A stretch of 64,000 nt of DNA, taken from positions 11,222,001 to 11,286,000 of the forward strand of contig OZ231126.1 in assembly GCA_965153355.1 (NCBI GenBank), in the 5' to 3' direction. Both the position numbers and the translations under genes were made by a program. Below, piece after piece: positions 13,642 to 57,804 of the stretch. The notes beneath the pieces were generated by a model. The model saw only the letters and a list, made by a program, of their open reading frames with translations. It ran no database searches and was not told the DNA's origin. Positions within the stretch are counted from its first letter, which is position 1, and the number at the start of each line of letters is the position of its first letter. The stretch comes from Flaccisagitta enflata. Taxonomy: Eukaryota.

Positions 13642-14839
13642 TCGTATTTCTCCTATTTAGCGTCCCCTCCCTAAGTAGCGCCCCCTCTTATCTGAAAAAG
13701 AACAAGGCCAAGAGATGTCCAATAGATGCGTCCTCTTTAGACTTAAGATATTATCATACAATTTATTAAGATATTAAGATATTAAGATATAATAATATGA
13801 AAATATAAAGATTCAGAGATAAAGAGAAAAATATAAACTCCATCCCTTCCCCCCCAATGCCTCCCCACCCCTCCCCCCCCCGCCTCCCCACCCCTCCCCA
13901 CCCCTCCCCCCACGCCACCCCACGCCTCCCCACACCCCCCCCGCCTCAATCTCACGAAGAGACATGAAGGGACTTGGAGAGACATGGAGAGATATGGAGA
14001 GACATGAAGAGACATGAGGAAACATGAGGAGACATAAGAGACATGAAGAGACATGAAGAGACATGAAGAGACATGAAGAGACATAAGAGACATAAGAGAC
14101 ATAAGAGACCTAAGAGATATAAGAGACCTGAGAGATATAAGAGATGTTAGAGATATGAGATATAAGAGATATAAGAGATATAAGAGACATAAGAGACGTG
14201 AGAGACATATGAGACATATAGGAGACATAGGAGACATATAGGAGACATACAGGAGACATAAGAGACATAAGAGACATAAGAGACATAAGAGGCATAAAAG
14301 ACCCAAGATAGATAAGAGAAATAAGAGATAAAGGAGACATAATAGAGACATAAGAGACATAAAGGAGACAAAAGAGACAAAAGAGACGAAAGAGATGAAA
14401 GAGACAAAAGAAATATAAGAGACAAGAAGAAATATGAAGAGAAGTAAAGAGAAAACCTTAAAAATCGCGTTTTGAAATTTTCCTATTTCATACACTCAGA
14501 CAGACATTCAGACAGACAGACAGACAGACCAAGGGACACACCCTCTTATAGAGATGCGAGGACGCATCTAAAAATATGCTACAGCTATACAAACTTCAAA
14601 TCTTTCTATATTATTTCATGGAAAAGAATGAGAACATTAAAATGTTTCAAATTGAAGAATTTTTTTTCTTTTTGTCTTTGCTTTTTTTCACTACCTGTCT
14701 TTTTTTTATCTTTAATTCTTTCACTTTTTATAAAAGACAATAGGATCTAATGTATTCGAGGGGGCGCTAATGAGGGTAAAATGGCATGGTCAAAAAATGG
14801 TTTTACAAGCGCCCGGGGGGCTATTTAGGAGAATTACGG
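13642..14839. mobile_element. CCGTA-type MITE (TA TSD) interrupted by a HINE family B copy
   Basis: TA|TCGTATTTCTCCTATTTAGC...GCTATTTAGGAGAATTACGG|TA; related to 584-915. Confidence 0.7.
13701..14574 (-). mobile_element. HINE-like family B, inverted homologue of 5001-6082
   Basis: Same head, 9-bp array, C-rich block and tail in reverse complement. Confidence 0.85.
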
Positions 14840-15223
14840 TATCTTGTTACTAGACATTGAGGATTCTGGAAAGTGTTCACAGAAATGGTAAATTAGAAAG
14901 TTGGAGCGGCGGCATTCACAGAGCATTTAAAAAAAAATCGTCGTTTTTTTAAAAAACTATACTATGTTGTCTACTTCAATTCAAATTTAACATTGAACCC
15001 AAAGATATTTTGCCAATTATTCGTAGGATTTTAATTGCCAGGTAAAAAAAGCATATAACGATCTGAGATGAGAAAAAAAAACTTTCTTTATTTTTTATTT
15101 GAATACCGCCATTCAACAGTATTCTGACAGACACCTGTTACCGCTCTGGCTCTTGGTTTTAAAAATTCAGTTGTTCGTAAGCCAATTTTATCAAGTAACG
15201 AAAAATTGCAAGAAAAAAAAAGT

Positions 15224-15299
<76 letters not shown>

Positions 15300-15475
15300 A
15301 AGAGAGAGAGAGAGAAAGAAAAGAGAAAGTGAGAGAGAGAAAGAGAGACAGAGACAGAGACACAGAGAAACAGAGACACAGAGAAACAGAGACAGAGATA
15401 CAAATCCATAAACAATTCCAAATACACGCACACACAGCTAGACAGACAGACAGACAGACAGACACACACGCACAC

Positions 15476-17300: not shown

Positions 17301-17604
17301 TTAAGGCGGCTTCCTAAGGGTATTGATTAGTGAATATTTTAGAATTGGACATACAGTTAACCACGTATTCGATTTTAAATTCATAAATGAAATCAAAACG
17401 ACGGAGGCCAGTATCTGATCAAGAAACCTGCACGGCAACACAAATGAGTTTCTATGGACTAAAAAGTGCCTGCATAGATACTCTGCCGTGTGGGTTCCCC
17501 ATTCAAACACCGACCTCTACTTGACTTCTATTCTAGAGGCCGCTTAGCGTGTATGGTAAATTGTATGACGAATTTAAAATTTTGACCAAACATCACCCCT
17601 TGAA
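17301..17604. repeat. Interspersed repeat, diverged homologue of ~13350-13609 (possible TTAA-type MITE)
   Basis: Collinear shared motifs: ATATTTTAGAATT, ATCAAG.AACC.GCA, TGCCGTG, CCCATTCAA..ACCGACCTCT, AATTGTATGACGAA. Confidence 0.6.
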
Positions 17605-17798
17605 GAACCAGCCTTCTACTCCTTTGAATTCCCGCGACTAAGGCCATCAGGCCATCTTTCTGCTGCTCCTTCCCATTGAACAATGCCCTGATCAATGCTC
17701 TCAATGTTTCTCCTTACACACAGCTTCACTTCATCCCTCGTGTCAGTTTATTTTCAACTTCAAGCCTAGATCTTTCATCACATACTGGTTTCTAACCT

Positions 17799-18050
<252 letters not shown>

Positions 18051-18055
18051 ATAAG

Positions 18056-19082
18056 TTACGCCCACGAGTTTCAACTGGCACTGTCTATGAGCGTCTATCT
18101 GACTGACGACTTGTGGTGAAAGAAAGTTGGCCGATTGGAAAATAGGAAGGCGATCGTCTCGTTTATTCCATAAAAATTTCAACAACTGAAGAGAGGGGGA
18201 AAAATGAAAGGGAAAGTGGGCGTTAATGGTGATCAGCAAACGCAAAAGATAACATGAAATCGAGACAGGACACAATAAAGGACAGAAACAGCACATGACA
18301 ACATGTTCATCTTCTTCAGAGCCCATGCCACCTGATAATACCTGCCCCTGCCCCGGCCCATCCCATTAAATTCATCCATATCATCCCCATAGTAAGCTGA
18401 TCGGGCAAACGATAAAAAACCATACTAAAATCCGGCGATAAAAATGCAAAAATGCAAAAGACAAAAATAACAGACCGGAAGACAAGATAAAAACAACGTT
18501 ACTAAAAGCAAAAACGCGTCTATAAAACTTACTTTTAGGCCCACTTTCGTTGGTTTCAACCCACAGTCTGTCGAAGTCAAATTAACGTAATTTGTCCGTT
18601 CATAAGTTTATCTGCAATAAAAAGATGAGAGATTATTGAAATTAGTAAATTCCAAGGGCACATTCAATCAATCACGAAAAATCAATCAATCACTTTAGGA
18701 AGCAATGCCGTAAATAAAAATAAAAACAATCGATCCAAAATTGGATGACACGAAGACGAGTTACGTATGTTTGTTTACGTAATAAAAACAAATGGCATAA
18801 AATACAAGGCGCAACCATATGGTTACCCATCTAGCCTTCATTATAAGAAATGGCGAGAAACAAAAGACACCGGCATTGAATAATAAGGAAAGACGAAAAG
18901 CCAAAAGCACGCAAAAGAAACAAAAGCACACATACTTAATAGACGGACGGACATACATTTCTAACATTCTGCCCCATTTTTGGAATTTCACGAATTTCAA
19001 AAATCCGACATCTAGTTTCCGGTCGGGGAAACCCTACTAAAAAACCGATACTACCTTCCTTAAAAAAATTTACATAGATACA
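18056..19082 (-). repeat. 3' LTR of the BEL/Pao element (~1.03 kb)
   Basis: Starts TGT (19082) immediately after a G-rich polypurine tract. 18056-18887 matches the 5' copy, and it ends against a (CT)n microsatellite. The start is inferred from the PPT because the 5' copy lacks this part. Confidence 0.8.
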
Positions 19083-19106
19083 GCCCCCGCCCCTCCCCCC
19101 CCGTCC
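19083..19106 (-). promoter_or_regulatory. Polypurine tract (plus-strand priming site)
   Basis: Minus strand reads GGACGGGGGGGGAGGGGCGGGGGC directly followed by TGTATC, the canonical PPT-TG arrangement. Confidence 0.7.
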
Positions 19107-19576
19107 ACCGCCTCTTACATCCCCACCCTAATTATCAACGGATCGACGACTGCACGAATGATGATTCCCGTCCGGAAAGGATCCACCACCAGCAAATTTT
19201 CAGCGATCACGATACGGATGGAGGCAGGCGGCGAGGAAGGTTGAGGCGCCCGTTCTGAAAAAGTTAAGGGAAGGGGGGAAAGGGAACGGGCCTTGGAGCA
19301 CTCCAAGCCTGGGATTTGACTTGAGAGTGGAAAATAATAAGTGGGGGCATACTACTAAAACATGTCATACGAAAGTATTCGTAATAATGACTAAAAAGAC
19401 CATGTCTAAAACAAACACAACAAAAATGTACATGTTCCAAGGAACCAAACAAAACAAGACAAAATAAATAAGTTACTAACTATATATAAAAACGAATCTG
19501 TAAGGTAAAAAAAAATCAGCAAGCATCATGGAACGACCACATCACCTGCGCCTTCTCCATTACAGAGACGAGCGGG

Positions 19577-22122
19577 TCACTCCGGAAGCTCCAACACCTC
19601 GTCAATCCGTGGGCGAAAGGCGATGAATGATGTCGTCAACGGCGACCGCATCGAAAGGCGCAGGTGGTGCAGCCGTCTGAGAATGTATCCTCCCGAAGAA
19701 GAAGAAAAAAAGAGAAAAATGGGGGCAGATTGATTAGTAAAGTTCTTATCGTACACAGATTCAAATTTACCACAAAAACTCAACCTCAACCCTTCCCCAA
19801 ACCATGATACTTACGCGGGCGTTTTTCGCCAGGCCCCGGGGCGGACGTCATTCCCACGCCCCGGGTAGCGCCCCCGACTTGGCCGGCCTGTCCACCGATG
19901 GGATGAGGATGTGATGGTGGAATACGATCCTCAGCGAATGGCGGCGCTCTCCACGCCATGTTGCAAATTGGTAGTTAAATTGAACAGCAACTGGGCGTGG
20001 CACCAATCAGTGTTTAACTGGCGGTCTGATTTTTCCAAGACCTGGTTCGATTTTTCTTATTTCCAGGCTTGGGAGCGTCTTTTTGCGAAAGGATCTGCTG
20101 ACCGACTTTTTCTGCAGGAGAAGACGCTGGAGGTAGAGATGCTGCATCGCAATTCGGCGCCAGTCGAAATTTAGGACGCACAGCGGACGCTGTTGTGAAG
20201 TCGACGGCCATAGCCGCCTTCGCGCGTTCCACAGCTTCCTCTTTCTTCTTAGCCTTCATCGCACAGGCCTGCTTCTCCTTTTCAAGCTGCTTCTCCAGTT
20301 CCACGACTCGCTTATTACCTTTGACCACCTCATTGTCCGCAGCCATTGCTGCTTGACGAGCATCGTCTCTCTCCTTTTGGATGTTGCGGCGAATCCTCTC
20401 GTCTAAGACTTGACGAACCGCTTCAACTCGTTGGCGCGGATTGGCGGCTGTGAAGAAGTCTTTGAAACCTTGATGCTAAATTCTTCACCACACCCAATGG
20501 AGCATTTGAGGTCAGTGAAGAGGCTTCTCGTAGCAATGACTCGGCGATGTGGTGTCCATGCGCAGGGTCAAAGGCTGGATCCGACGGGGGAGGCGGGTTT
20601 TGCACTTGCTGCAGACCTTGGGCAGACTCGGTTTGCTGACGAGGCGCTACACCAGCTTTAACAGATGCTGAAGCACCGCCAACTAGTTCCGCTTCCTACA
20701 CTGCTGACGGCTGCGAGTGAAAGGAAGACGCTCCCGACTGCTGACCAGAGACTTGAAGTTGAACAGCGGACGCGGAAGCACATCAAGTAGAACCTCCCTT
20801 GGTTGCTGCTTTGTGCTTTTTCCAGCTCTCTTGGTCTTCTTCCCTTTTGCCGCTGCCCCAGGCGCCTGATTCAGCTTCTGGGTTGCTGCCAATGTTGCCG
20901 TCGACGAACCACTTGAAGCTTCTCCTTGGCCTTTGGGCGTTGCTGCAGGGGGCGCGCCTGGAGGCGCTTGAGAGGGCCTTTGCTTTTGGAATCTGGCCCT
21001 TTTTGTTGACTCGGCACATTGCTTTTGTGGAGTCTTTCCCCGACGTGATCTCTTCGATTGCTGTGAGGGAGTGGCGTCACGAGGACCCTGTTGCTGCTGA
21101 TTTGGGGGATGAACCAATCCAGGGCGCGATTGACGACTTCCTGATGCTGTAGAGTGAATTGCCGCTGATGCCCAGCTGCGGCTGCGTGGCACAAATACCG
21201 CTGGTGGAGTTGCGGAAGCGTCGCGGAAGTTGCTGCAGATGAAGTTGCAGCTGCATCAAGGAAGGCTCGGGGCCGCATTCTTCCTCTTCGTCGCCTGGAC
21301 CATGCGACGAACCTCATATCATGCTCCCTCCTTCTTTGTTGCTTTGGATTTTGCGCTCCCAGAGTCTCCGGCAAGCTCTGTTTGATTAGCCGATGAGCGC
21401 ATGAGAGTTTGTTTGTTGCAGCATACTGAAAGTTTTTCAAACTCTTTGAAGAGGAGAGATACTCCGACGTCCGGACTGATGATACGATACCACCAACGCG
21501 CCTGCATCCGTTGGTGCTTCTCTTCCGGCGTCGCAGTGTCCACTTCCGGGTCAATGTCTTTCTCCACCACCTCCCCATTCACCAACACCTCCTCCTCTGT
21601 TTCCATCCCCTCCTCCTCCACTCTTGCTCCATCATTGACCGATCTCTCTCTCTCTTCGCCCCCGCTGCGTTGACATGCAGCTGCAGACGCTTGATCACGA
21701 GACGCTGGGCGACCGAAATCAAGGCAGAATTGGCGAGGCGATGGGGGCAAATCCAATGATGACGACGCCGCCGCGGAAGTGGTGGATAAGTCCGTCGGCG
21801 GCCGATTGATCGAGATCCGCCTCGAACCTCCATCTCTGATGACCACCAATGGAGGAAGCGACGCGGGATCAACGGCGTTGGATGGCTGTTGGCGATTTTC
21901 AGCGCATCGTCTTGTTGACGCTTTTTCTTCGCCATTTGCGTCGGCGCCCGGGCGAGTCGCCATTGAAGGCTGCCAGCGCGACAGCCTCCTCCTCCGCCCG
22001 GCACGCGTCGTGGATGCAGATCCTTCTCGAGTCGAGCCGTCGTTGAAGAGTCGATGGAGATCCAAGGATCCGTACGACGTCGACACGTCGGCCTCTGCCT
22101 CGAGACGCTGCTGACGGGACAT
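19577..22122 (-). pseudogene. Accessory ORF3 of the retroelement, unknown function (disordered/basic regions plus coiled coil; frameshifted, probably spliced)
   Basis: GC-rich, codon-like sequence from ATG 22122 (MSRQQRLEAEAD) continuing through consecutive same-strand ORFs 21319-22353, 20683-21192, 20423-20605, 20014-20346 and 19577-19789. Coiled-coil-like ERDDARQAAMAADNEVVKGNKRVVELEKQLEKEKQ. No signal peptide or TM segment seen. Confidence 0.7.
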
Positions 22123-22473
22123 CTTGACTCCGACGAGCGACTTCAAGATGCGAACTGACTTCGTAGATGGAATGACGTCGTCAGCGGAAGCTTTGAAATG
22201 TTCGTTTTGAGAACTGATAATGGTAAGAACGGATTTTGGCACAATAATATGTACATATAGACAGAGCGAATGAATCAGTGTTTTGATGTGTAAGTGGAAA
22301 TGGACAACATAATTGACAAGAGGAAAGATGAAAGCATGGATAATCAGAACCAAATATGAATAATAACAACTCTTTGTAAATATAACAAGTCAGAGTTTCA
22401 ATCACTCATATCTATAGTTACTAATGGACAGGCCCATGCGCCTTTTTCTCTCTCTCTCAAAACTTAGCGTTTT

Positions 22474-23595
22474 TTATGAGTCCAATTCCAGCCGCACGAG
22501 CTTCGTGCGGTCTTTCGTCACGATCTTTCCATCTTGGCGCCGGATGTGAGCCCTCCGGACATGGGCTGATGATCCCTCGACGCCCATGACACGTCCTAAA
22601 CTCCAATTGTGACGAGGCAGCGTTTCGTCCATGACGATGACCATGTCATCAACCGCAAAGTCTCTCTCGGATCTCGACCATTTGCTTCGCGCGTGAAGAA
22701 GCGACAAATATTCGACCCTCCACGATTTCCAAAACGCATCCACACGCGATTGCGCACGCCTCCATTGAATCTTCGCGGAGTCAGCGTCAGAGTTGACGCC
22801 TTGTTGCACCAGATCTAGAGGGGCGTGACCGGATGTTGATGGATTGAGGATATGATTCGGTGTGAGGGCCTCAGAGTCATTTGGATCATCGCTGAGCGCT
22901 GTCAGAGGACGGCGATTGAGAATTCCTTCAACTTCGACAACGGCAGTATTGAAGGCATCGACGTGGAGGATGGCGCCAGTCGAGATGGAAGCAAGATGGC
23001 GCTTAAAGAGAGCGACGATTCTCTCCCACACCCCTCCATAGTGGGGTGTTCTCGGCGTGATGAAATCCCACCGAAGGCCGCGCCGCTGCAATTCGGGAGT
23101 TGACGAACGGTTCCAAGCTTCCATTTCCTTCTTGAGGATATTATTGGCGCCAACTAGATTCGTCCCGCAATCTGAAGTGAACCGGCGGATTCCTGGGCGC
23201 CTTGCTGCAAAGCGGATGATTGCATTTACCATCGCATCGGCTGACATGTTGAAGAGCAATTCCACATGGACGGCGCGTGACACGAAACAGGTGAACACTG
23301 CGATCCACACCTTGTGATCAGCACGCCCGTTCATTTTAACTAGGAAATGCCCCATGACATCCAATCCAGTCTCTGCAAAGACAGGCGCAGGATTGACGCG
23401 ATTTGATGGAAGATTGGCCATTTGCTGATTTGCGTTCTTTTTAAAGTTCTTCTGGCATCTGAAGCACGTGTTGACGACGCTCTTGACAGCCTGAAGACCT
23501 TTTGTAATCCACACAAATTGGCGTAATTGGCACAATGTATGCTTTGCACCCGCGTGAAAATCATTATGATGATAATGGCGAATTAATGATTTCAC
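22474..23595 (-). CDS. pol: Integrase (C-terminal part of pol; this segment is uninterrupted)
   Basis: HHCC zinc motif (YHHNDFH...CFRC), D-D-E residues in GLDVMG / SDCGTNLVGA / GGVWERIV, and BEL-type C-terminus WKSWRVEYL...WSLGRV...KLVRLE. Confidence 0.95.
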   Translation of the reverse strand: MKSLIRHYHHNDFHAGAKHTLCQLRQFVWITKGLQAVKSVVNTCFRCQKNFKKNANQQMANLPSNRVNPAPVFAETGLDVMGHFLVKMNGRADHKVWIAVFTCFVSRAVHVELLFNMSADAMVNAIIRFAARRPGIRRFTSDCGTNLVGANNILKKEMEAWNRSSTPELQRRGLRWDFITPRTPHYGGVWERIVALFKRHLASISTGAILHVDAFNTAVVEVEGILNRRPLTALSDDPNDSEALTPNHILNPSTSGHAPLDLVQQGVNSDADSAKIQWRRAQSRVDAFWKSWRVEYLSLLHARSKWSRSERDFAVDDMVIVMDETLPRHNWSLGRVMGVEGSSAHVRRAHIRRQDGKIVTKDRTKLVRLELDS

Positions 23596-23834
23596 ATTCT
23601 CGTCTTTTAGCGGCAGGATGAAGGGAAATTTAGCGTCATGTGCGTGTCGGCGTTTTTGTCGGCTGCCGACGCGAATGATACCGTCGTCGTCGACGAAAGT
23701 TCAATTTCCGCATCTCCTTATTTTTATGATGAAGTCATGACGGCTTTCTGGTTTAAAGACTTTTCCCAACTCCAATTGTTCAAAGACGTCGGAATAATGA
23801 TGCCGCTGCATTGACTTGACGAGCTGTTTGCGTA

Positions 23835-25341
23835 TTACGCCTCCTCCAAAACGTCTTGCGTCACTTCCGGTTTAGGAAGGAGATCCCTTGCTGCTCGTGT
23901 CTTCGCCCTTGGATACGCTCTCCACCTTTTGACTGCGTGAGAACCATGCCGATGATCCAACTTATGCATCCATTTTCCCCGAGAAGCTGCTGCAAGAAGT
24001 ATCGCGTCAGCCACTTGTTTCTTTTCACTTTCAGCCACATACAGAGCGGCGACTTGTGCAGAAATAGGGCACGTCGCGATGTTCGTCTTTGGCCATTGAT
24101 CTTCGGGAAGACGCAAAAATGCAGGACCGTGATGGAATTGACGCCATTTTTCGGCTTCATGGGCCTGGATGCCTCTGCTGCAGTGGTCCGCCGGGTTGTT
24201 GTGAGTCAACCCAGCGCCACTGTTGAGATCAGACCCACTATGGATCTTGGAGAGACGATTGGCGAAAATACAGGCCTCGGTTTCGCCGGATTATAAATCA
24301 TCTTCAGTGCAGATTCAGAATCAGACCAAAATCTGACGACAAGATTGTCCAAGTTGATGGTCCTTCCGACGAAGCGTTTGAGCTGCACTGCTTTTTCTGC
24401 GGATACAATCTCGACGCGTGGAACGCTGTTATGATGAGAGGCACGTTTTGGATTGAGTGGAATGACGTGAGATTTGGAGGCAATGAATGAAATGTGAACA
24501 TCTCCATCTCGATTGACTTGACGTCGATATGCAACTGCTCCATATCCGCCTTTTGGAGCCGCATCGCAAAAGATCTCGATTGTGATTTCCGCAATGTCGC
24601 TGTTGTCGACGCCGCCATTCCACCAGCGTTCAATTCGGTATTGTTGTAGAAGAGGCCAAGATGAAGTGTAGCGGAAGAAGGATTCCTCGACGCTCTCTTC
24701 CAAGGCGAATCCCATCCCACTTCCTGTGGACGACAGAGTTGAAGATGTCGTCTGCCGATGTATGCGCTTGGGCTCCAAAATCCCAATGGATCATAAGTTT
24801 GGCTTGCATGGAGACCAATTGACGAGTGTTTTGCTCTAAGAGTTTTGAATTCCTCGTCGCAGATGAAGATAAAGACGTCTTCCGCCGGAAGCCATGAGAC
24901 GCCCAACACCTTCGTCGGCGCATCATCTTGCTTATCTGAGATGGGGATTGGAACGTTTGGATCTCCATCCATCAATTGCCGCGCATTACTCTTCCATTTC
25001 ACAAGATCCATCCCGCCTTCAGCCATCGCCGCCACTGAATCCACCTTCAGCTGCAACGCTTCGTCGACCGAATCCCCACCCCCACTTCCGTCGTCGACGT
25101 AGAAGCCGTAGCGAATAAGATCGTAGACGTTGTAGGGATATTTGGGCCGGATTACTTCAGCATGCTTTCTGAAGGTGAAAGATGTGACGAATGAGCTGGA
25201 TTGGCTGCCGAAGACATGTGATAAGAACAGATTCAAAATTGCTTCTCGTAGAGTGCGGTCTTTGAACCAAAAGAATCTGAACAAATCAGCGTCGTCAGGA
25301 TGGACGCGGATTTGGTGGAAAAACGCCTTTATATCACACAT
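23835..25341 (-). pseudogene. pol: pol: reverse transcriptase core and RNase H (frameshifted)
   Basis: CDIKAFFHQI, FRFFW, HVFGSQSSSF, FYVDDG, TKVLGVSW, YDPLG; RNase H IFCDAAPKGGYGAVAY, ASKSHV, SVPRVEIVSA, FWSDS, NPADHCSRG, HGPAFL, spread over three frames. Confidence 0.93.
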
Positions 25342-26441
25342 AAAGGCGATTTTCCAAAACGCATGAGGATGTCCATCAAGCTATTCATCAAGTTTGGACC
25401 CCCGACGAGCAAATCATTGAGTGAGATTCCGTCGGTCGCCGCACGCGCATCGTGGCATACGCGCATCTTACCGCGCAATTCCACAACGTGAAGTGGTAAG
25501 TACCAGCGCGGCTTTTCAATGCTGTCGTCGTCGTCGACGCTGTTGATCTCAATCGCCACTCCCGTCTCGTAAAATTTCTCGATTTCACGGAAGACTCTTT
25601 CTTTGAAGGCTGGATCACGCTTGAAGCGGAAACGTTGATTGCAGAGCCGCTTCATCGCAGTAGGTCGTGACCTCACTCTTCTCAGAATTTCCATGATTTT
25701 TTCGTGATGAAATTTCCATGTGACAGGAGCAAAATACTTTTTCACAATTGGGCAAAAATATGTCTTTTCCTCTAACATTTTGCACGCTCTGATATTCTCA
25801 AGGGAATCACCCATCTCCTCTTGCGAAACGATTGATGATGCAAAGTCATGGTAGAAGATGCGGTCAATGTTGCTGTTGAGGACGCGATTGTCGAGGATGC
25901 GATCGATGTTGTCGTTGAGGACGCGGTCATCCGTTGCGATAGCGTTGATCGATGCAATATCTCGTCCTCTCTTCCCCGTCTTTCCACATACAGTCCAACC
26001 GAATAGACATCTGAAGCAAGTCAAAGATCCTGAAGGCCCTCGGCGGATTTCTTGAGCGACGGCGGCATCCGCATGCGCCGCTCCGATGATCATCATTACA
26101 CCGCCTTCAACTTCTGGAAATTTTATGTCTCTGATGTGAGGTTGGTCAGATAGATCGCGGAGAAAAGGAGGAATATCGCGTTCACTCGTTAACAAATCAC
26201 CCACCAACGCGTCGTTGACGTCGACAACATATTCCTCGTCGACCGATTGCATGGTGAATGACGTGATGAAACGATCCTCAACAACACGATTTCCTACAGT
26301 AATCACCGTCATTTGCACTGTTTTTGTTGGAATCAGAAGACTGCGAATGACACTGGTACTGATCACGTCGCGATCAGCACCTGAGTCGATCATAGCGTAT
26401 ATCGTCCTCTGCGCACCCGAAGAATTGTTTATGATAGTCAC
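25329..26441 (-). pseudogene. pol: pol: aspartic protease and N-terminal part of reverse transcriptase
   Basis: YAMIDSGADRDVI protease motif, LFGWTVCG, WYLPLHVV, KMRVCHDAR, SLNDLLVGGPNL; frameshift near 25335. Confidence 0.92.
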
Positions 26442-26507
26442 TGGAACGATCGGACGGACAACGTCGTCGAATGAAGAGACGGACCGCGACGTTGCCGTCG
26501 CCGCCAG

Positions 26508-29500
26508 TCATGCCGTGGCGTTAGGAGAGATCACTTCTGTTGGATCGGCTGCCTCCGTCGTCGCCAGGCTGTTGGTGCTGCTGCAGCATCCTCTGACTTT
26601 TGAAGGGAGCCAGCGGTACTTTATTTCCCTGCTTATTTTCTCCTTTCTTCTCTTCCTTTTCTTCTTTCTTGTAGGTGCGCCCGTGGAGAATAGTCGCGTG
26701 CCGCTTGCAGATCTGGCAAGTTGGTCTGTTCGCGCACCCTTTGGCGTTGTGTCCTGGCGCGAGGCGGTGGAGCAAAGGCGACGAGACATGATCTTCTGAA
26801 CTCTCGCGTCCACTTCCAACTCTGACAACTGATGACACTCTTCCGTTTGATGCATTCCACTGCAGACGTTGCAGCGGTCCGTCGACTGCACTTTTTGCTT
26901 GCCATTGGTCAAGGCATCCTCATATGATGATGGCGCCTCTTTTTCTGTCGTTGCAACTGCTGCCACTGATGCTGTTTTGCAGCTTGCGCCTTTGTTGCGC
27001 TGAATCACCGCCCATGTCTCAATCATATGAACCAAGTTATCGAATGAAAATAACTGTCCATTTTGGGCTGCTTCATGTTGCTTTTCCCAGAATTTATCTG
27101 CAAGATGAGGGACCCTCTTATTGAGGATCTCCTGCAGCAGCTCGTCACGATAACATTGTTGCACTTCTCCACAGGTCCTCGCAATCTTCTTTGCCTTTTG
27201 CAACCTTGCAGACAAATTGAAATGCCTTGCATGGTCGGCCGACTGGATCTTCGCCTCCGCGACGATTTCGTTGAACAGCGCCGCAATGTTGCAGCGCCTT
27301 GCCATAAAGACGACGTCCATTTTTGCGAAGGCGTCGTCAATCTCTCCTCTTGCTGTCGCTTCAGTTGCATCAATCGTCGCAGTTTCAATGATCTCTTTTG
27401 CCGGACCAGCAAACCACTTAGGCAATTCTAATAAGATGTCCATTTGCGTCAAGCCTTCATGCTTCTCAGCATCTTTGAACTTCCTCTTCCACATCATGAA
27501 GTCGGTGGATGAAAGCTCCTGCAGAGGCTTCTCGGGTCTTGCTCTCTCCAGCGGCACAGAGGCCGACCTCCCTTGCTCATGAGATCGTTGTACGCCGCTC
27601 TTTCCAAAAACATGTCCAGAGCCGGATTGTTGGGCATCTGAACGTGGACTTCCGGTTGGCGGGCTACTTGATGATGCTCCACTTGATGATACGCTGGGGG
27701 TTGTTGGGTAAACGCGTATTGACCCCCGACTTTTACCGGAGATCTCTTTTTGGTGGTTTTTACGCTCCACCCAACTTCTTCTTGCTGATTCATTTGTTGT
27801 TGACGATCATCTTGATGGAATCGGGGAGCATCAAAATCTTGGCGGACGTACTGTCGCTGTTGTTGTTCTTCTTTACGTTGTTTCTCTTCTTCTCTCGCTG
27901 CGGCAAGGTCAAAGTCTCTCTGCTGAATCTGCATCTTCAAACTATCCACTTCCTGCTGCAAACGTTGATTCTGCTGGATGACTTCCGCTTGAGGCGTTGC
28001 TAGAGGCGCTTGCGCTACTTTTGGCGCCTTCGGCTGCAATCCACTCATTGTCTTCTTGGGAGCGACTTTTCTTCTCTCCTTATCTTGCAGCTGCTGTGCC
28101 AACGCGTCAGCGGCCTCCTGCCCTCTGCCTCCTGCGCATCGCCTCCGTTGCATCACCTCCGCTTCCGGCTGTGTTGAAGACCTTTTCCTCTTGATGGGGA
28201 AGACCAGTCTCCCTTCTAGCAGAACCAATCTGCTTCTCGAAGATCACTTCCGGTGCGGTAGGGAGAATCGTTGCTGCTGGGGTTTGGTGATGCTGATCCT
28301 GATGCTGTTGCTGTTGTTGAAGCCGTTGCTGCTGCCACTGTTGATGTTGAAGCTGCTGTTGCTGGTCAGGATGCTGTTGCTGTTCATTCTGCTGCTGCAG
28401 TTGACGCTGACGCTGTCCTTGCTGCTGCTGCTGCTCCAACTGTTGCTGCTGCTGCATCGGCTGCTTGACGGACGTTTCCACTGACTGCACATGATGTTGC
28501 TGTACGTTCGAATTGAACAATCCCGGATTGAAATTTCTGAAGATAGATCGACGGTCTTTTGGCGGATGCTGCGGCTGCTGCTTGTCCAGCTCAGACAGTT
28601 GTCTAAGCTTCACATCCCGCTGCTCTAAAGCTCCACCAATGCCGCCGTCGTTCAGGCTATTCCAGTGCTTTCGTTGCATTTCTGCGCATTGTTGAATACT
28701 CCTGCTCTTCTATCTTCATCTCGTTGCTGCTGCTGGCGAAAGTTACACATTCTGTCGTATAACTTTGTCTTCTTGTGATGAGCTTCGCTGTTGGAATCTG
28801 TGCTTTTCCGCGACTGGCGCCTTTTGGGCTGTTGCTGCACCACCACCTTCACCTTCAGCCATCATGCGCAGACGTTGATCTGCAAGGCGTTGCTGTCTCT
28901 CTTCTTCTGTCTCCTCACTGACGTTCATGCTTTCTACAGGATGGTTATTTGACGCTGGAGGATCCACTACCACCGCTGGGATCGCGGCGGAAGGTTGCTG
29001 TTGCTGCTGCGGTTGCTGTTGCATACACATTCATCTGCATTATTTTGCGCTGTTGTTGTTGTTCATGCGGCTGCATGTTGCTGTTGTTGATGTTGTTGCA
29101 GCTCTTGTTGTTGTTGCTGTTGTTGCTGCTGCTGCTGCTCGTGTTGTTGCTGTTGTTGGACCACATGTTGTGGCGCCGGCTGCAAAATTTGACGTTGTTG
29201 TTGGTCTTGTTGACGAAATTGTTGAAGTTGCTGCAACTGCTGCTGCTGCAACAGCTCTTGCTGCTGCCGTTGAGCTGTCGTTTGCTGCTGCTCCTGTGGT
29301 CGGTGGAGTTGACGTTGCTGTTGGAGCTGCTGCTGCTGCATCTGCAATTGATGCTGCTGACTATTGCTCCTGTTGCTGTCGCTGCTCCTCCTCCGGTGTT
29401 GCTGCTGCATAATCATCTATCAGCCGCCGGCCTTGTCGCATTTCCTCCTCCAGCTGCCTACCCCATCTGTCTCTCTCCGCACTCCTGTTGACAAGGCGTC

Positions 29501-30258
29501 GCCTCGCCCTCTCCTGCGGCGTCAATCCGTTGATGACCCCACGACCTCTTGCAAGAGCATCGGCGTCTTCGAGATCCGCATAAGCATAACATCCCAGCTT
29601 GCTCCATCGGAAGAGCGCGGCATGGTTCAATTTCCGAGACCAAATCCGATACCCATTGATTGACGGCATCTCCTCTTTGGATCGGCGGCAGATTTAAAAA
29701 TTAGCCGCCAGTTGGAGAGATTGCGCACCATGTCGAGGGACCGGAAGTGGCAGATATTCGGATCCGTCGGGGTTTGGCGAAGGCGTTCGCATCCTTGGAG
29801 TCGGAGCGCCAGTAACATTGTCACGGGCGGCATGAGTGTCAGTTGGGAGACTGTTCCATGAGAATTCGTGGACGGGTCTTTCGCGATTCCCAATATCGTT
29901 GTGCACTGCGTTCACGATGTCAGCGTTGGAAGGGAAAACCTCTGGATAATTTTCACGATCAAAAGAAGCTTGTGGAGTTCCATTCGCGCCGGATTCGACG
30001 CAGAGTGGACGCCGTGAATCGAAGAGGGTCGCCGGGCATCGAGTCGAGCGCCATTTGCCTTGCGTATGATATAAAGTCGTAGACCATATCCCGAAGGCCG
30101 TGTCGAACGCCGTCTGATTCACATGCGGCGTCGTCGAAATCGTTCGATCCTTCGGTGCAAGTGGCAGCGGCGTCGAAAAGGCGCCGGCATCCTTCCATCT
30201 CCGCCGTGATGTCGTTCCTCATTGCGCGCAAACGATTAGACCTCGGACACTGATTCAA
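26508..30258 (-). pseudogene. gag: gag (frameshifted): long Gln-rich N-terminal region, capsid-like core, three Cys/His knuckles
   Basis: Overlapping ORF pieces (29959-30258, 29694-30122, 29361-29669, 29063-29416, 28743-29030, 28107-28679, 27494-28228, 26508-27770). Core DFMMWKRKF...LPKWFAGPAKEII; knuckles CNVCSGMHQTEEC, (C..)LAPGHNAKGC and CQICKRHATILH as in BEL/Pao Gag. Confidence 0.85.
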
Positions 30259-30379
30259 ACCGAAGTGAGATCCACGAGATGGCGTTGAAGCAGTCGAGAC
30301 GGTTATAAATGAATTACGCGCGGCATCGTGTCCAATTTAGTTTTGGTTGAAGATGGAAATAGTCGAGTCGTTTTTAAAT

Positions 30380-31209
30380 TGTTGAAGCCTAAATTACGCC
30401 CACCAGTTTCAACTGGCACTGTCTATGAGCGTCTATCTGTTTTGTGACTTGTGGTGAAAGAAGTTGTGATTGGAAAATAGGAAGGCGAGCGTCTCGTTTA
30501 TTCCATAAAAATTTCAACAACTGAAGAGAGGATAAAATAAAAGGGAAAGTGGGTTAATGGTGATCAGCAAACGCAAAAGATAGCATGAAATCGAGGCGGG
30601 ACACAATAAAGGACAGAAGCAGCACATGACAACATGTTCTTCTTCTTCAGAGCCCATGCCACCTGATAGTACCTGCCCTGCCCCGGCCCATCCCATTAAA
30701 TTCATCCATATCATCCCCATAGTAAGCTGATCGGGCAACTGAAAAAAACCATACTAAAATCCGGCAATAAAAATGCAAAATGCAAAAGACAAGAATAACA
30801 GACCGGAAGACAATATAAAAAAAACGTTACTAAAACAAAGACGCGTCTATAAAACTTGCTTTTAGGCCCACTATCGGTTGGTTTCAACCACAGTCTGTCG
30901 ATGTCAAACTAACGTTAGTTGTCCGTTCATAAGTTTATCTGAAATAAAAAGATGAGAGATTATTGAAATTAGTAAATTCCAAGGGCACATTCAATCAATC
31001 ACGAAAAACAATCAATCACTTTAGGAAGCAATGCCGTAAATAAATAAAAACAATCAATCCAAAATTGGATGATACGAAGTCGAGTTACGTATGTTTTTTT
31101 ACGTAATAAAAACAAATGGCATAAAATACAAAGCAATCATATAGTTACCCACCTAGCCTTCATTATAAAAAATGGCGAGAAACAAAAGACACCGGCATTG
31201 AATAATAAG
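30380..31209 (-). repeat. 5' LTR of the BEL/Pao element, apparently lacking its first ~195 bp
   Basis: Aligns by eye to 18056-18887 with scattered substitutions and indels. Homology stops at 31209 against an (ATCATT)n microsatellite. On the minus strand it plausibly ends ...GGCTTCAACA at 30380. Confidence 0.85.
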
Positions 31210-31212
31210 AAA

Positions 31213-31331
31213 TCATTGTCATAGTCATTATCATTGTCAGTTTAACTATCATTGTAATTATCACTATCATTATCATTATCATTATCATTATCATTATCAT
31301 TATCATTATAACTATCATTGTAATTATCATC

Positions 31332-31363
<32 letters not shown>

Positions 31364-31440
31364 CATTATCATTATCATTATCATTATCATTATCATTATC
31401 ATTGTTTTATAATCATCATTGTATTTATCATTATCATCAT
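31213..31440. repeat. (ATCATT)n microsatellite abutting the 5' LTR
   Basis: Direct reading. Confidence 0.95.
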
Positions 31441-31454
31441 CTTTTTCCTCCCAC

Positions 31455-31589
31455 CTGCATTTCCACCAAAACAGACTTCTTCCAATTGGCATTGAAACAG
31501 ATTTTGTGGAAGAGTCTCAAGGGAACAATCATCTGCCCATAGCTTCTTCAGATGCGATGAAGGAGGAAGATTTGGCAGAGTTCGTAATT
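31455..31589 (-). CDS. Leucine-rich-repeat protein, second coding exon
   Basis: Acceptor ATCAG| at 31591-31590; joins in phase to give ELRTLPNLPPSSHLKKLWADDCSLETLPQNLFQCQLEEVCFGGNA; donor CAG|GTGGGA after 31455. Confidence 0.85.
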
Positions 31590-31631
31590 CTGATTTAAAC
31601 AATACGCATTGATTTTTAAGTCCCTGGCCAC

Positions 31632-31761
31632 TAGGAATGTTGAAGCGGTCAATTTTAGTGCCGCTTCCACCGCTTCCGCTTCCGCTTCGATTTTGTAGTA
31701 CAAATACTAGTAGCTATCCCATCCTTCAAAATGGAAGCGGTCAAACGCTTCTACATCCCTA
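31632..31761. mobile_element. Tiny hAT-type MITE in the LRR gene intron
   Basis: TAGGAATGTTGAAGCG...CGCTTCTACATCCCTA; 8-bp TSD CTGGCCAC/CTGGCAAC. Confidence 0.8.
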
Positions 31762-32208
31762 CTGGCAACTCTGTGGATAATCATTTACATGAGTTTTTGT
31801 GGATGACTGCCTCCACCAAAATCATGCTGCTATTCTACTACAGAAACTAATCGAAACAAAGACAATAGAGTGAAAGTTGAAGATTGGATATGATCGTAAT
31901 GATTAGATGTTTTAGTGTAACATTGGAAAATTGGTTCTGAAATTTTCAAGGATAAACCTTCTTTTTCATTAGGTGATACAGAAAATGAGAAATACAGAAA
32001 TGAGCAAAATGAGAGAGACATAGGAAAGTGGAGTGATAGAGATGAGGATGAGGCTCTCCATCAACCTCATCCTCATTCTTCTCTCTATCTCTCCACTTTC
32101 TGAGTCTCTGTCTTTTTGCTCATTTCCAATATGGTCCAAAAACGTCCAATCATTTCCATCAAAACGCTCACAATTGGTTGTCATAAATCGCAAGCAATTT
32201 TCAATTAC

Positions 32209-32963
32209 CTTTGTTCTCATTAAACTTGACTTCTTTCAAAGTCTCAATCTCAAAAAGCCAAGATGGAACTTCACTTATCTTGTTTCCCCAAAAACACACT
32301 GTTTGGATAACTGGCAACACTTGGATTCCCCTTGGAATTGAATCAAGCTCATTTTTGCTCAATCGGAGAACATTCAAGTTTGGGAGTTCAGCAAAAGATG
32401 GAGGAATTTCTGCCATTTTGCTGCACGTGAGATCTATCTCTTCAATTTGCTGCATTTTCTCTATTCCTCTTGGCAGTAGATTAACATCTATCAGGCCTAA
32501 AGCTCTCATGGTCTTGATGTTGACAAACTCAGTTGGCAGGTCAAGTATCTCATTCTCTCTGCCAATTTGTAACTCCTCGATAACAGGCATGTTTTCAATT
32601 CCTTTTGGGACTGATTTGAGGCCACATTCGGAAAAGTCGACTTCAGTGGTGGCAGTGAGTTTCTCTGCCCCTTCTATCACTGCCACAGGATTTCTATTGA
32701 AATAGAGGCCTTTGATTTCCGCGGCAACTTCAGTCTCAACATCAACGACAATACGCGTGTAACCAGCTTTTTGTGGCAGACAGAATATACCTTTCTCCTT
32801 TTGCCAGTCCCACTTTTCATCTCGTCCTTCAAATGGTTTGAAAAAATCTGGTTGTACAAATGGCCTCGACTCCTTTGCAGCATGCTTATCCTTTGGTCCT
32901 TGTCCATAATTTCTGATGTAATCAGAATCCAGACGGAAAACCTTCTCTGACTCTGACTGTGAC

Positions 32964-33055
<92 letters not shown>

Positions 33056-33073
33056 TTGTTGTTGTTGTTGTTT

Positions 33074-33106
<33 letters not shown>

Positions 33107-33664
33107 TTGTTGTTGTTGTTGTTGTTGTTGTTGTTTTTGTAGTCTTAATCGTTTATGTCGTGGTTGTTGTTGATGTTTTTGTCGTTGCTGTTTTCTTATG
33201 CCACTTCTGTCCTTAACATCCAAAGCTGGAGTAGTAGAAGCAGCTGAAAAGGCATACACCGCTGGAGTGGCATCGCTGGCAGCTGCGGAAGTGGCTACAG
33301 CCGCTGGAACAGCGGAAGAAGGGGAGGAGGATGAAGCAGAAAAGACCACTGGAGTAGCAGGAGTAGTGGCAGCAGCCAAAGTGGCAGAAGTTGCTGAGAA
33401 AGAAAAAGCAGGGGAAGTGGCTGAAGCAGAGAAGACCACTGGAGTAGCAGTGGCAGCGGCCGAAGTAGCGGAAGCCACTGGAGCAGCAAAAGCAGGGGAG
33501 GAAGATGTAGCAGCATAGACTGCAGGAGTCGCATCGGTGGCAGCTACGGAAGTAGCTAAAGCCGATGGAGCGGTAAAATCCAGGGGAGCAGCCATTGGCG
33601 CGGCGACGAGAGGGGAAGGCGTTGAGGCAGAAAATGCCGCAGGATCAGGGGGGCGCCCTTCCAT
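32209..33664 (-). CDS. Leucine-rich-repeat protein, first coding exon (Ala/Ser/Thr/Pro repeats, polyQ, LRRs)
   Basis: 487-aa ORF with LRR units (EVDFSECGLKSVPKGI, EEIDLTCSKMAEIPPSF, NVLRLSKNELDSIPRGI, TVCFWGNKISEVPSWL). Phase-1 donor AAAG|GTAATT after 32209. Confidence 0.9.
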
Positions 33665-33937
33665 AGTCTCGTTGAAGAGCTAATCACATGGTCCAATCAT
33701 TGTCACAAGCAAGCGGAAAATTACACCTGCCCTGAGTCCATCAAATATATTTTTGAGCTGATTTATCGCTTGAATTACTGTAAATGGAAAAAGGAACAAA
33801 TAACAGTGTAACATATTGCTAAAATTTAAGATCGTTATAAAGATATTTCAAAAAATTTTTAAAAACATCTTTTTTATAGTTGAAATCCCTCAATCACGGA
33901 TCCTTGATGACATTGTAATATCAAGTTTTTTTTTTTC

Positions 33938-34081: not shown

Positions 34082-34279
34082 CTATCAGTATAGTTTTTGC
34101 TCCTCAGAAGAGTCTTTTTTTTTTCCCTATATCAAGAATCGACAATGAGCGCCATTTAAAAGCCGCGGAAGAGTTGAAAACAAAATAACAAATTCAGGAC
34201 GGGATCGATATGATGATGAGAGAGAGAGAGAGAGAGAGAGGGAGAGGCGAGAGCGAGAGCGAGAGCGAGAGAGCAAGGC

Positions 34280-34330
<51 letters not shown>

Positions 34331-34368
34331 CAGTTGATTGATTGATTGATTCATTTACTGATTGACTG

Positions 34369-34427
<59 letters not shown>

Positions 34428-34438
34428 AGAGAAAGAGA

Positions 34439-34631
<193 letters not shown>

Positions 34632-45211: not shown

Positions 45212-57804
<12,593 letters not shown>

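Follow-up and report, generated by a model that had tools for sequence, protein, structure and literature searches.

BEL/Pao retrotransposons (Belpaoviridae) have been described with gag, pol and, rarely, an env-like gene, Tas being the ICTV example (PMC8742986). Atlas virus of nematodes has a phlebovirus-like Env (PMC9094657). Non-env ORF3s have been reported for LTR retrotransposons of bdelloid rotifers, where GDSL esterase, DEDDy exonuclease, 'CC' and 'TM' types are distinguished and the authors caution against taking an ORF3 to be env by default (PMC5408684). In plants, the aORFs of LTR retrotransposons are family-specific, lie between pol and the 3' LTR, lack similarity to database entries and are conserved like gag-pol; some of them encode nuclear proteins, and a role in regulation has been suggested (PMC7264820). 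The Drosophila MDG1 group of Ty3/gypsy is env-less, and its accessory sORF1 and sORF2 serve the element, as stated in the part of the preprint at hand (bioRxiv 10.1101/2025.03.14.642691). A 2009 survey places LTR-retroelement accessory genes in Retroviridae, Caulimoviridae and some Ty3/Gypsy clades, Bel/Pao being unnamed in the portion available (PMC2774666). Our literature search, in which the family name was in part matched poorly, returned no description of a non-env third ORF in BEL/Pao; similar elements might be among the supplementary element sequences of PMC3118150.

Here, we analysed an element in a 64,000-nt stretch of DNA from Flaccisagitta enflata (the window). The initial annotation of this locus had proposed that a segment following the integrase, here called ORF3, is a real gene of the element, is not env and belongs to no known family. 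Relatives, null homology searches and protein features uphold this core claim. We estimate at roughly 80% the probability that one BEL/Pao lineage has in ORF3 a genuine third gene and that the copy in the window is dead and decaying neutrally.

The element and its features

The BEL/Pao LTR element occupies ~13.1 kb of the minus strand, from 31209 to 18052. Its features are listed in 5' to 3' order of the element, in window coordinates.

31212-31427: (ATCATT)n microsatellite, abutting the 5' edge of the 5' LTR
30390..31209, minus strand: 5' LTR, homologous part (direct-repeat families D7-D14 with a spacing of ~12.33 kb; LTR alignment)
29671..30389, minus strand: leader, from the 5' LTR to the gag start (read from the sequence; the relative P0070 maps from 29664 downward)
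27247..29670, minus strand: Gln-rich N-terminal extension of gag, ~650 aa ahead of the capsid-like part, frameshift-broken in the window copy
26508..27806, minus strand: gag capsid/nucleocapsid part with the CX2CX3HX4C knuckle CNVCSGMHQTEEC
22474..26507, minus strand: pol, spread over four shifted ORFs (25329-26507, 24304-25380, 24206-24790 and 22474-23700) that cover protease, RT, the Pao signature region and integrase
22123..22473, minus strand: AT-rich spacer of 351 nt (A.28, C.21, G.17, T.34)
22212..22217, minus strand: first TCAGTT, within ttcttaccattatCAG/TT (22227-22212)
22158-22153, minus strand: second TCAGTT (A at 22156), with AGTCA at +28 to +32 (22129-22125) and an ATG at +35
20014..22122, minus strand: ORF3, decayed copy of a 710-codon gene, stop codon 20016-20014 (frameshift-aware alignment with the relative P0007; tblastn in three pieces)
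21340..21640, minus strand: most conserved ORF3 block, an acidic patch EEEGME..DPEVD followed by QARWWY..SLLFKEF.KLS.CCN..RSSA.Q (two alignments)
20160..20540, minus strand: ORF3 C-terminal helical domain, P0007 residues ~531-655, modelled by AF2 with pLDDT 87-97
18888..20013, minus strand: 3' region after ORF3, containing a G-rich tract (19125-19080)
18052..18887, minus strand: 3' LTR, homologous part (direct repeats and LTR alignment), then (GA)n and 8-nt repeat arrays

Judged by its sequence, the element is a member of BEL/Pao (Belpaoviridae), with a Pao-type pol signature, the order PR-RT-RH-IN, LTRs and a CCHC knuckle. Pfam matches to pol comprised Peptidase_A17 (E 6.9e-17), DUF5641 (E 9.8e-20), Integrase_H2C2 (E 2.7e-09) and rve (E 8.8e-05), together with weak matches to Asp_protease_2 (E 0.0025) and RVT_1 (E 0.0089) that lie in the expected order along the minus strand. 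The integrase ORF (22474-23700), which has its stop at 22474, carries DUF5641, Integrase_H2C2 and rve. Via the ORF at 27494-28243 we found P0070 (805 aa, 44 member sequences), which maps in several frames to 29664-27246 with 82-91% identity. The C-terminal part of P0070 is matched by the N-terminal part of the gag ORF at 26508-27806, an ORF that had no Pfam match and no gag model.

Alignment of the 5' LTR with the 3' LTR gave 93.9% identity (770 of 820 positions, 10 gap events) and a K2P distance of 0.064. The homologous LTR lengths, ~836 and 820 nt, fall inside the 0.2-1.2 kb range given for BEL/Pao. The leader holds an 87-codon upstream ORF with its ATG at 30222. In BEL/Pao an 18-nt PBS complementary to tRNA-Arg or tRNA-Gly adjoins the 5' LTR; here, no PBS starting with TGG directly follows the LTR, which ends at 30390, and TGGACACGATGCCGCGCG is found in the leader, ~60 nt beyond that end. 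The tRNA scan of the 64-kb window gave 0 genes for comparison, and Rfam gave 0 matches on 17500-31700.

No protein match maps to 18888..20013, and there is no evidence of coding there. The PPT that had been annotated downstream of ORF3 corresponds to the G-rich tract at 19125-19080. The tract is present; its assignment as PPT is unsettled, since in BEL/Pao a short PPT immediately precedes the 3' LTR, whereas this tract lies ~190 nt upstream of the point at which LTR homology begins (18887-18896). Another candidate is the shorter run AAAAATGGGGCAGAA, with TGT after it near 18966. An intron-like pair in the same region, GTAAGT (19813) and a polypyrimidine-CAG (19502), was rejected as unsupported: the joints listed contain none here, and RNA run X18 covers 19456-19794. 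The bin 19117-19455 is without cover in X18.

ORF3, its relatives and its product

The window copy of ORF3 is dead and non-functional. When aligned in a frameshift-aware manner with P0007, an intact 710-aa relative, 694 codons could be aligned, 646 of them identical (93.1% identity), with 12 frameshifts and 1 in-frame stop. The frameshifts are found around 22000-21900, 21360-21220, 21020-20820 and 20467, and the stop near 20698. This decay is consistent with the age of the LTRs (K2P 0.064, 10 gap events per 820 nt). The same-strand coding sequence of the initial annotation is real, with a length of 2.1 kb (22122-20014) instead of ~2.5-3 kb. The consecutive frameshifted ORFs in which it had been read are also present, with more breaks than had been noted, and the ordered block quoted from it, RMQARWWYRIISPDVGVSLLFKEFEKLSVCC, was found in the ORF at 21319-22389.

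With the 267-aa translation from the ATG as query, 6 of 2898 candidates were relatives at E <= 0.01. Among longer proteins, a profile search found 5 full-length relatives of 692-710 aa, which represent 87, 81, 11, 4 and 92 member sequences. All 15 members listed for the P0007 cluster have at least 703 aa, and 12 of the 15 listed for the P0011 cluster have 692 aa. Long intact frames, which the initial annotation had expected of a consensus, thus exist among the relatives. At least four lineages, just 37-66% alike, have intact ORF3 relatives of 673-710 aa, and the order of blocks is kept: it is common to P0007, P0066 (673 aa), P0011 (692 aa), the partial P0068 (513 aa) and the fragments P0018 and P0024. 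Other lineages share 50-66% identity in the conserved core versus 37-52% elsewhere in ORF3. With P0007 or the alignment of its relatives as query, no related locus was found in viral contigs and metagenome contigs.

The GC content of 51-60% across 19500-22000 and the presence of plus-strand ORFs of 129-139 aa in the ORF3 region would suit a segment that is no gene at all, consisting of chance ORFs in GC-rich non-coding DNA or of a nested, unrelated element. This reading is barely credible, since the relatives match at E 1e-95 to 1e-134 and exclusively in minus-strand frames, the segment is not flanked by repeats or termini, and the order integrase-spacer-ORF3 recurs in other lineages.

Linkage of ORF3 to the element was seen in proteins as well as in contigs. 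P0022, a chimeric ORF, runs from integrase (window 23559-23095) into the C-terminus of ORF3 (20584-20380). In P0032, which is from a divergent lineage, the integrase 3' end and spacer (22496-22407 and 22360-22331) are joined to the ORF3 core. In divergent lineages, the linkage rests on these two short chimeric ORFs and on translated pieces of the spacer. A 1693-nt contig spans 20762-22439 in RNA runs X4 and X14, a contig of X18 (22219-22722) crosses the integrase stop, and contigs bearing proteins of the P0011 cluster are up to 12.7 kb long. The expectation that other copies carry the segment was borne out by bridging contigs in three runs, and among the joints listed just one rare deletion joint lacking ORF3 (19761 to 22287) was encountered, in one X1 contig.

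Searches with ORF3 led to no known family. Pfam gave 0 families at E <= 1 for P0007 and P0011 and, in the same two proteins, no recognisable catalytic domain (GDSL esterase/lipase, DEDDy exonuclease, dUTPase); across these proteins and all ORF3 pieces of the window, the sole Pfam match, to DUF4472 (E 0.009), was sub-threshold and was rejected. A PDB sequence profile gave 0 matches at E <= 1, and Foldseek against PDB gave 0 at E <= 0.001 (best E 1.6); its J-domain rows, with probabilities <= 0.08, were rejected. The VIA wide search returned generic coiled coils and long helices alone (Z <= 6.2), and the best ESM Atlas values, 0.81 for the whole protein and 0.88 for the C-terminal part, were both under the counting level. 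A profile scan of 1,835,955,588 proteins gave 29 matches, all of them pieces of the ORF3 family. The initial annotation had named a host gene, another TE and a known env or accessory ORF as possible sources of the segment; among the 1.84 billion representatives neither of the first two matches ORF3, and no known env or accessory family does.

Could ORF3 be a passenger, that is, a host gene or foreign segment transduced once behind pol, of no service to the element and with ORFs intact as most copies are young? Its family has been seen just in environmental assemblies and one organism, most of the protein is of low complexity and is modelled as disordered, no function can be assigned to it from family, fold or sequence searches, and the rare joint described above lacks it. 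We nevertheless consider a passenger improbable. The 1.84 billion representatives contain no host-like or other-TE relative, the upstream spacer is conserved too, and lineages 37-66% alike retain a 673-710-aa frame with its ordered blocks, the core being kept better than the linkers. A neutral frame of 2.1 kb would not stay open across the divergence of these lineages; the window copy, at an LTR K2P of 0.064, already has its 12 frameshifts.

The product had been annotated as basic and as lacking a signal peptide and TM helix, and both descriptions hold for the intact relatives. The maximum Kyte-Doolittle mean over 19 residues is 1.32 in P0007, which has a charged N-terminus (MSRQQRLEAE), and 0.77 in P0011; the pI is 9.84 in P0007 and 9.6-9.8 across the two proteins. 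The protein contains 6 Cys and 5 N-x-S/T sequons. Basic clusters at its residues 67, 265, 282, 360 and 434 are NLS-like, a motif-level reading, as are the splice sites below.

ORF3 occupies the place of an env gene, after pol and ahead of the 3' LTR (PMC8742986), and has a long helix in addition to its sequons, as might a very divergent envelope or cell-to-cell transmission protein. Such a protein is very improbable here, given the lack of a signal peptide or hydrophobic segment, the small number of Cys, the high pI, the multiple basic clusters and the lack of any match to a viral glycoprotein or fusogen by Pfam, Foldseek, VIA or PDB profile; likeness to viral fusion glycoproteins was likewise not found by Pfam, PDB sequence or Foldseek.

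The AF2 model of full-length P0007 had a mean pLDDT of 49.5, with 514 of the 710 residues below 50 (~72% low-confidence or disordered), and the ~100-aa acidic-plus-helical core folded alone had a mean of 56.7. The C-terminal domain includes an 85-residue charged helix in the place of the coiled coil of the initial annotation. The heptad pattern of this helix did not exceed chance, being attained in 3686 of 5000 shuffles, so that a single charged helix may be present here; the dimer model nevertheless passed its controls. In that model, the C-terminal long helix (P0007 residues 525-662) is predicted to form an antiparallel homodimer, with a score of 0.47 versus 0.00 for the best of three controls, agreement between runs in at least 91% of contacts and a partner pLDDT of at least 71. 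Among proteins solved as one-chain pairs, 21 of 30 attained a mark of 0.47, and among solved single chains 0 of 23 did; on eukaryotes the corresponding numbers were 17 of 29 (animals 7 of 16) and 0 of 30, with 1 of 7 for proteins without an older solved relative. The pass may reflect a memory of generic coiled coils.

Intact relatives, linkage and protein features together lead us to regard ORF3 as a genuine third gene, conserved and distinct from env, in one lineage of BEL/Pao.

The spacer and expression of ORF3

Both TCAGTT motifs reported earlier for the spacer (22217-22212 and 22158-22153) and the ATG following them (22122-22120) were confirmed on the minus strand. Translated pieces of the spacer recur in P0004, P0005, P0006, P0032 and P0036 and map back to the spacer of the window. 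Over the 24 codons ahead of the ATG, the window and P0004 are identical at 14 of 24 positions by eye, the P0004 protein being 36-38% identical overall. There is no ATG in about the last 130 nt before 22122, and the ORF3 frame has no stop in the 89 codons that precede the ATG, a length attained in 52 of 20000 shuffles. Additional protein-coding sequence was rejected as a reading of this open frame, since the conserved pieces lie in different frames across lineages and copies.

The spacer (22123..22473) is a candidate internal promoter or splice-acceptor region. At the motif level, TCAGTT is taken to be Inr-like and AGTCA to be DPE-like. At somewhat under even odds, we favour a transcript that would start within the spacer, with TCAGTT as initiator and AGTCA at +28 as downstream element; ORF3 would then be translated from its own short-leader mRNA. 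The internal promoter of foamy viruses, which drives Tas/Bet, is an analogue for such a spacer promoter.

Alternatively, ORF3 might be expressed from a spliced subgenomic mRNA, as retroviral env and many ORF3s are, with a donor in the 5' leader and the polypyrimidine-CAG at ~22214 as acceptor. By eye, the first TCAGTT is also a possible 3' splice site, ttcttaccattatCAG/TT at 22227-22212 being followed by an ATG-free stretch down to 22122, and the 89 stop-free codons would fit as well. The ORF3s of LTR retrotransposons are said, in the accessible part of the bdelloid study, to be made typically from spliced messages (PMC5408684). Among the 15 joints listed for four RNA runs, which have a further 387, there was no joint from the leader to 22214; these runs were examined as assembled contigs, which may include DNA, lose rare splice forms and leave starts and strand invisible. 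The sequence immediately ahead of the ATG is conserved between lineages, which also argues against splicing. As the second TCAGTT has the DPE-like AGTCA exactly at +28, a start at this motif is favoured over splicing, which we keep as a serious contender.

ORF3 among known third genes

The closest known counterpart by position is the env-like third ORF of BEL/Pao, which in the available texts occupies the same sense-strand slot, from integrase to the 3' LTR, in the same family (PMC8742986; PMC3118150). In contrast to such an ORF, ORF3 encodes a basic, mostly disordered protein without signal peptide, membrane helix or homology to glycoproteins. The element is also longer, ~13.1 kb versus the 4.2-10 kb stated for BEL/Pao, a descriptive range that does not exclude membership. 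Its gag, with a Gln-rich extension of ~650 aa, and its non-env third gene both differ from the family description.

Like the bdelloid elements, as far as the excerpts describe them, this is a metazoan LTR element with an acquired sense-strand non-env ORF after pol (PMC5408684). However, Juno, Vesta, TelKA and Mag of the bdelloids are not BEL/Pao, and in the same text the enzymatic types have recognisable domains, whereas Pfam found none in ORF3 (PMC5408684). The plant aORFs belong to Ty1/copia and Ty3/gypsy elements, are in many cases antisense (PMC7264820) and have no sequence relation to ORF3. The Drosophila sORF2, in the accessible part of that report, is a short transmembrane fusogen-like protein, whereas ORF3 is long and without a membrane segment (bioRxiv 10.1101/2025.03.14.642691).

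We infer that the ORF3 product is an accessory protein that would stay inside the cell, probably in the nucleus, associate with itself and act in trans for the element. Rev, Rex and Rec, and Tas and Bet, are basic nuclear proteins of small to medium size that oligomerise; their genes lie 3' of pol, and each has its own mRNA, which is either spliced or initiated internally. The comparison with these proteins is one of how they work: ORF3, at ~700 aa, is far larger and has no sequence or fold similarity to them, and the hints in their direction are its motif-level basic clusters and the modelled dimer of its C-terminal helix. By this analogy, our best single guess, offered with considerable doubt, is that the protein would regulate or chaperone the RNA of the element, or its transcription, in the manner of Rev, Rex or Tas. 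A still more speculative and rather unlikely extension is that the element would be a 'complex' belpaovirus, the first such, with a large disordered nuclear regulator of de novo or untraceable source, expressed from its own Inr/DPE promoter in the spacer, that might control transcription or RNA fate of the element or counter host silencing and might have aided its very high copy number in a marine animal.

Domain-based TE pipelines would miss or mislabel ORF3, the spacer and the Gln-rich gag extension. With a conserved 100-aa core, a modelled dimerising helix and a conserved upstream region as candidate control, ORF3 would be a tractable orphan. Its function could explain why an element of such unusual length (13 kb) is abundant in a widespread marine animal. 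A conserved intracellular third protein of 700 aa, if true, would extend the 'complex' organisation to a third family of reverse-transcribing elements.

A broken BEL/Pao element and its third gene

The minus strand of the window carries an LTR pair, detected as direct repeats ~12.33 kb apart and then aligned: 770 of 820 aligned positions are identical (93.9%), with 10 gap events and a K2P of 0.064. The features are as follows:

30390–31209, minus strand: 5′ LTR, homologous part
Between the LTRs, minus strand: BEL/Pao pol, four shifted ORFs (Pfam)
In pol, minus strand: Peptidase_A17 (Pfam E 6.9e-17)
In pol, minus strand: DUF5641 (Pfam E 9.8e-20)
In pol, minus strand: Integrase_H2C2 (Pfam E 2.7e-09)
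In pol, minus strand: rve (Pfam E 8.8e-05)
22474, minus strand: end of the integrase ORF
22473–22123, minus strand: spacer
22122–20014, minus strand: ORF3, third gene after integrase
18052–18887, minus strand: 3′ LTR, homologous part

Protease and RT in pol gave weak Pfam matches. The element is an old, broken BEL/Pao copy of ~13.1 kb, longer than the 4.2–10 kb of the family description (gag, pol and sometimes env; PMC8742986; excerpt of PMC3118150) because of a gag extension and ORF3 together. The gag (27247–29670, minus) has a ~650-aa Gln-rich N-terminal extension, and several of its frames match P0070, an intact 805-aa relative with 44 member sequences. The GC-rich leader that separates the 5′ LTR from gag holds an 87-codon ORF with an ATG (29959–30222, minus); Pfam gave no match for the ORF enclosing it. 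The 5′ LTR merges at its 5′ edge with an (ATCATT)n array (31212–31427), while (GA)n and tandem repeats of an 8-nt unit lie beyond the 3′ LTR (17729–18094); no target-site duplication was readable at the LTR outer edges, where these microsatellites lie. Further arrays with 8–9-nt units occupy 14050–14450, 15176–15420 and 34190–34670. Leucine-rich repeats (LRR_14, E 4.3e-10) occur in an open frame of 492 aa at 32201–33679 (minus). This frame, which also holds three 84–90-nt tandem repeats (33277–33540) and a long (TTG)n run (32963–33139), is probably a host exon adjoining the element. A second reverse-transcriptase ORF (49666–50688, plus; RVT_1, E 2.2e-11) shows that the window holds another retroelement.

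The initial annotation had proposed a gene of ~3 kb after integrase, in consecutive frameshifted ORFs. Overlapping minus-strand ORFs do follow the ATG (21319–22389, 20871–21578, 20683–21255, 20423–20695 and 20014–20475), and the gene stands at a reduced length of 2.1 kb; the PPT placement had to be corrected. The 267-aa translation from the ATG matched 6 proteins at E ≤ 0.01 among 2898 candidates, including P0001 (85% identical), which runs through the frame breaks of the window, and the distant P0002 (51%) and P0004 (36% over 95% of the query). A profile of these first matches, run against longer proteins, gave five full-length forms, namely P0007 to P0010 (703–710 aa) and P0011 (692 aa, 37% identity), backed by 87, 81, 11, 4 and 92 member sequences, respectively. 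Of the 15 members listed for each cluster, all in that of P0007 have at least 703 aa; those in that of P0011 comprise 12 proteins of 692 aa and 3 fragments. In a frameshift-aware alignment, P0007 covered 22122–20017 with 646 of 694 codons identical (93.1%), and the breaks now number 12 frameshifts (near 22000–21900, 21360–21220, 21020–20820 and 20467) plus one in-frame stop near 20698. Judged by its sequence, ORF3 is evidently a gene. The window holds one copy only, which is a dead insertion decaying neutrally, since its small-indel load matches that of the LTR pair and most contigs of sequencing run X1 keep, at several indel sites, the letters that it has lost. No sign of coding was found in 20013–18888. 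Past the ORF3 stop, 19502–19813 (minus) has an intron-like pair (GTAAGT ... T-rich tract-CAG), with no joint there among the contig joints listed.

Linkage to the element and conservation

Several relatives join ORF3 to integrase or spacer. P0022 is a natural deletion form in which residues 28–145 match integrase (23559–23095) and residues 143–211 the ORF3 C-terminus (20584–20380). In P0032, from a divergent lineage, the last integrase codons and the spacer start (22496–22407, 22360–22331) lead into a segment that is 30% identical to the ORF3 core; P0004, P0005, P0006 and P0036 carry translated spacer ahead of MSRQQRL. We also compared contigs with positions 18100–28250 of the window. A 1693-nt contig spanning 20762–22439 was found in X4 (marine DNA metagenome) and X14 (metatranscriptome), and a contig of X18, an oligo-dT RNA run, crosses the integrase stop with ~250 letters on either side (22219–22722). 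X1 placed 32,543 contig pieces, covering 30 of 30 bins. Only one joint among those listed removes ORF3 (19761 to 22287, one X1 contig, 12 other letters between), which makes that contig a rare deletion variant. In whole or in part, the stretch was present in 20 runs belonging to 13 studies; most are marine metagenomes, and 6 of the runs are recorded as RNA.

The protein alignment A6 covers six lineages: P0007, P0066 (673 aa), P0011 (692 aa), P0068 (513 aa, N-terminally incomplete) and the fragments P0018 and P0024. All keep the block order of P0007.

Blocks of ORF3 in alignment A6
1: N-terminal helix
2: AAF.GDL
3: PPSPR.F
4: acidic patch EEEGME..DPEVD
5: QARWWY and SLLFKEF.KLS.CCN..RSSA.Q
6: basic helix
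7: RPGLVHPP
8: low-complexity basic stretch
9: FDP..GHHI.E.LL..LPKDF
10: long helix
11: KDAPK..KK.RTR.W tail

Identity to P0007 is 50–66% in the core (residues 161–265) and 37–52% elsewhere. An open 2.1-kb frame with ordered motifs kept at such divergence argues for purifying selection.

The protein and its possible expression

P0007 has a pI of 9.84, a charged N-terminus, an acidic patch (net −12, residues 151–200) and basic clusters at residues 67, 265, 282, 360 and 434; with a KD19 of at most 1.32, it lacks any hydrophobic segment. The product is not an env. Full-length relatives, integrase and spacer joins and the missing hydrophobic segment support the proposal of a non-env accessory gene carried by the BEL/Pao element, a reading to which we give a probability of about 0.8.

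Pfam found no family in intact ORF3 proteins, a PDB sequence profile no match and Foldseek no hit at E ≤ 0.001; the VIA structure search returned generic long helices only (Z ≤ 6.2), and Atlas, with scores of just 0.81 and 0.88, gave no family or fold. A profile scan of 1,835,955,588 representative proteins yielded 29 at E ≤ 0.001, all pieces of the ORF3 family itself. AlphaFold2 modelled P0007 (26 sequences) with a mean pLDDT of 49.5 and 514 of 710 residues below 50; the confident parts are helix 254–284 and residues 531–655 (two short helices and an 85-residue helix), and the core by itself reached 56.7. The long helix is 45% charged, and its heptad pattern is no better than chance, being reached in 3686 of 5000 shuffles. 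Two copies of residues 525–662 were modelled as an antiparallel homodimer, scoring 0.47, against 0.00 in the highest-scoring one of 3 controls; contacts agreed by at least 91% between runs, and partner pLDDT was at least 71. This mark was reached by 21/30 proteins solved as one-chain pairs and 0/23 solved as single chains; for eukaryotes the counts were 17/29 (animals 7/16) and 0/30, and for eukaryotic proteins without an older solved relative just 1/7. The model thus supports a putative self-association of the C-terminal helix. A role as a nuclear, self-associating regulator or chaperone is a tentative reading of its function, well short of even odds.

The spacer runs for 351 nt after the integrase stop (A.28, C.21, G.17, T.34). 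TCAGTT motifs (minus) lie at 22217–22212 and 22158–22153, ahead of the ATG at 22122; every coordinate of the initial annotation proved correct on the minus-strand reading. Compared by eye with P0004, the 24 codons that precede the ATG agree at 14/24, the first 24 ORF3 codons at 15/24 and the protein overall at 36–38%; the upstream codons are thus kept about as well as the protein's first 24 and better than the whole. Spacer blocks (GAWACP.VTI, FIFGS..PC, LSIC.Y, KASAD) recur between lineages in differing frames and therefore reflect conserved nucleotides, not protein. The ORF3 frame before the ATG (22123–22389, minus) has 89 AT-rich codons without stop or ATG (52/20000 shuffles equal), and its read-through accounts for certain cluster members of 755–803 aa.

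These sequences would fit an internal promoter as well as a spliced subgenomic RNA. Counted from the A at 22156 in the second TCAGTT, AGTCA occupies +28 to +32 and the ATG lies at +35, an arrangement that we take to match the arthropod Inr plus DPE pattern; production from an internal promoter is a tentative reading, somewhat short of even odds. The first TCAGTT sits within ttcttaccattatCAG|TT, a sequence that can also be taken for a candidate 3′ splice site, and the ~130 nt upstream of 22122 lack an ATG; splicing might produce ORF3 with a likelihood nearer one in three. The source of P0001 and P0070 bears the label 'merc' and is presumably a transcript-derived marine eukaryote catalogue, a weak hint that ORF3 and gag relatives are transcribed.

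Third ORFs after pol

Retroviral accessory genes are one case of third ORFs after pol. A few BEL/Pao elements have an env-like third gene there (PMC8742986; excerpt of PMC3118150). Rotifer LTR elements carry ORF3s of GDSL, DEDDy, 'CC' and 'TM' types (excerpt of PMC5408684), plant LTR elements have unexplained aORFs after pol, some nuclear (excerpt of PMC7264820), and the Drosophila MDG1 group has small accessory ORFs (excerpt of bioRxiv 10.1101/2025.03.14.642691). In the excerpted text of a 2009 survey of accessory genes of LTR retroelements, Bel/Pao is absent from the listed carriers (PMC2774666). In our literature search no account of a non-env third gene in BEL/Pao turned up, although the slash in the family name made part of that search less sensitive. 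We rate the orphan, conserved and apparently intracellular ORF3 in Belpaoviridae as a probable new form of the known third-ORF theme.
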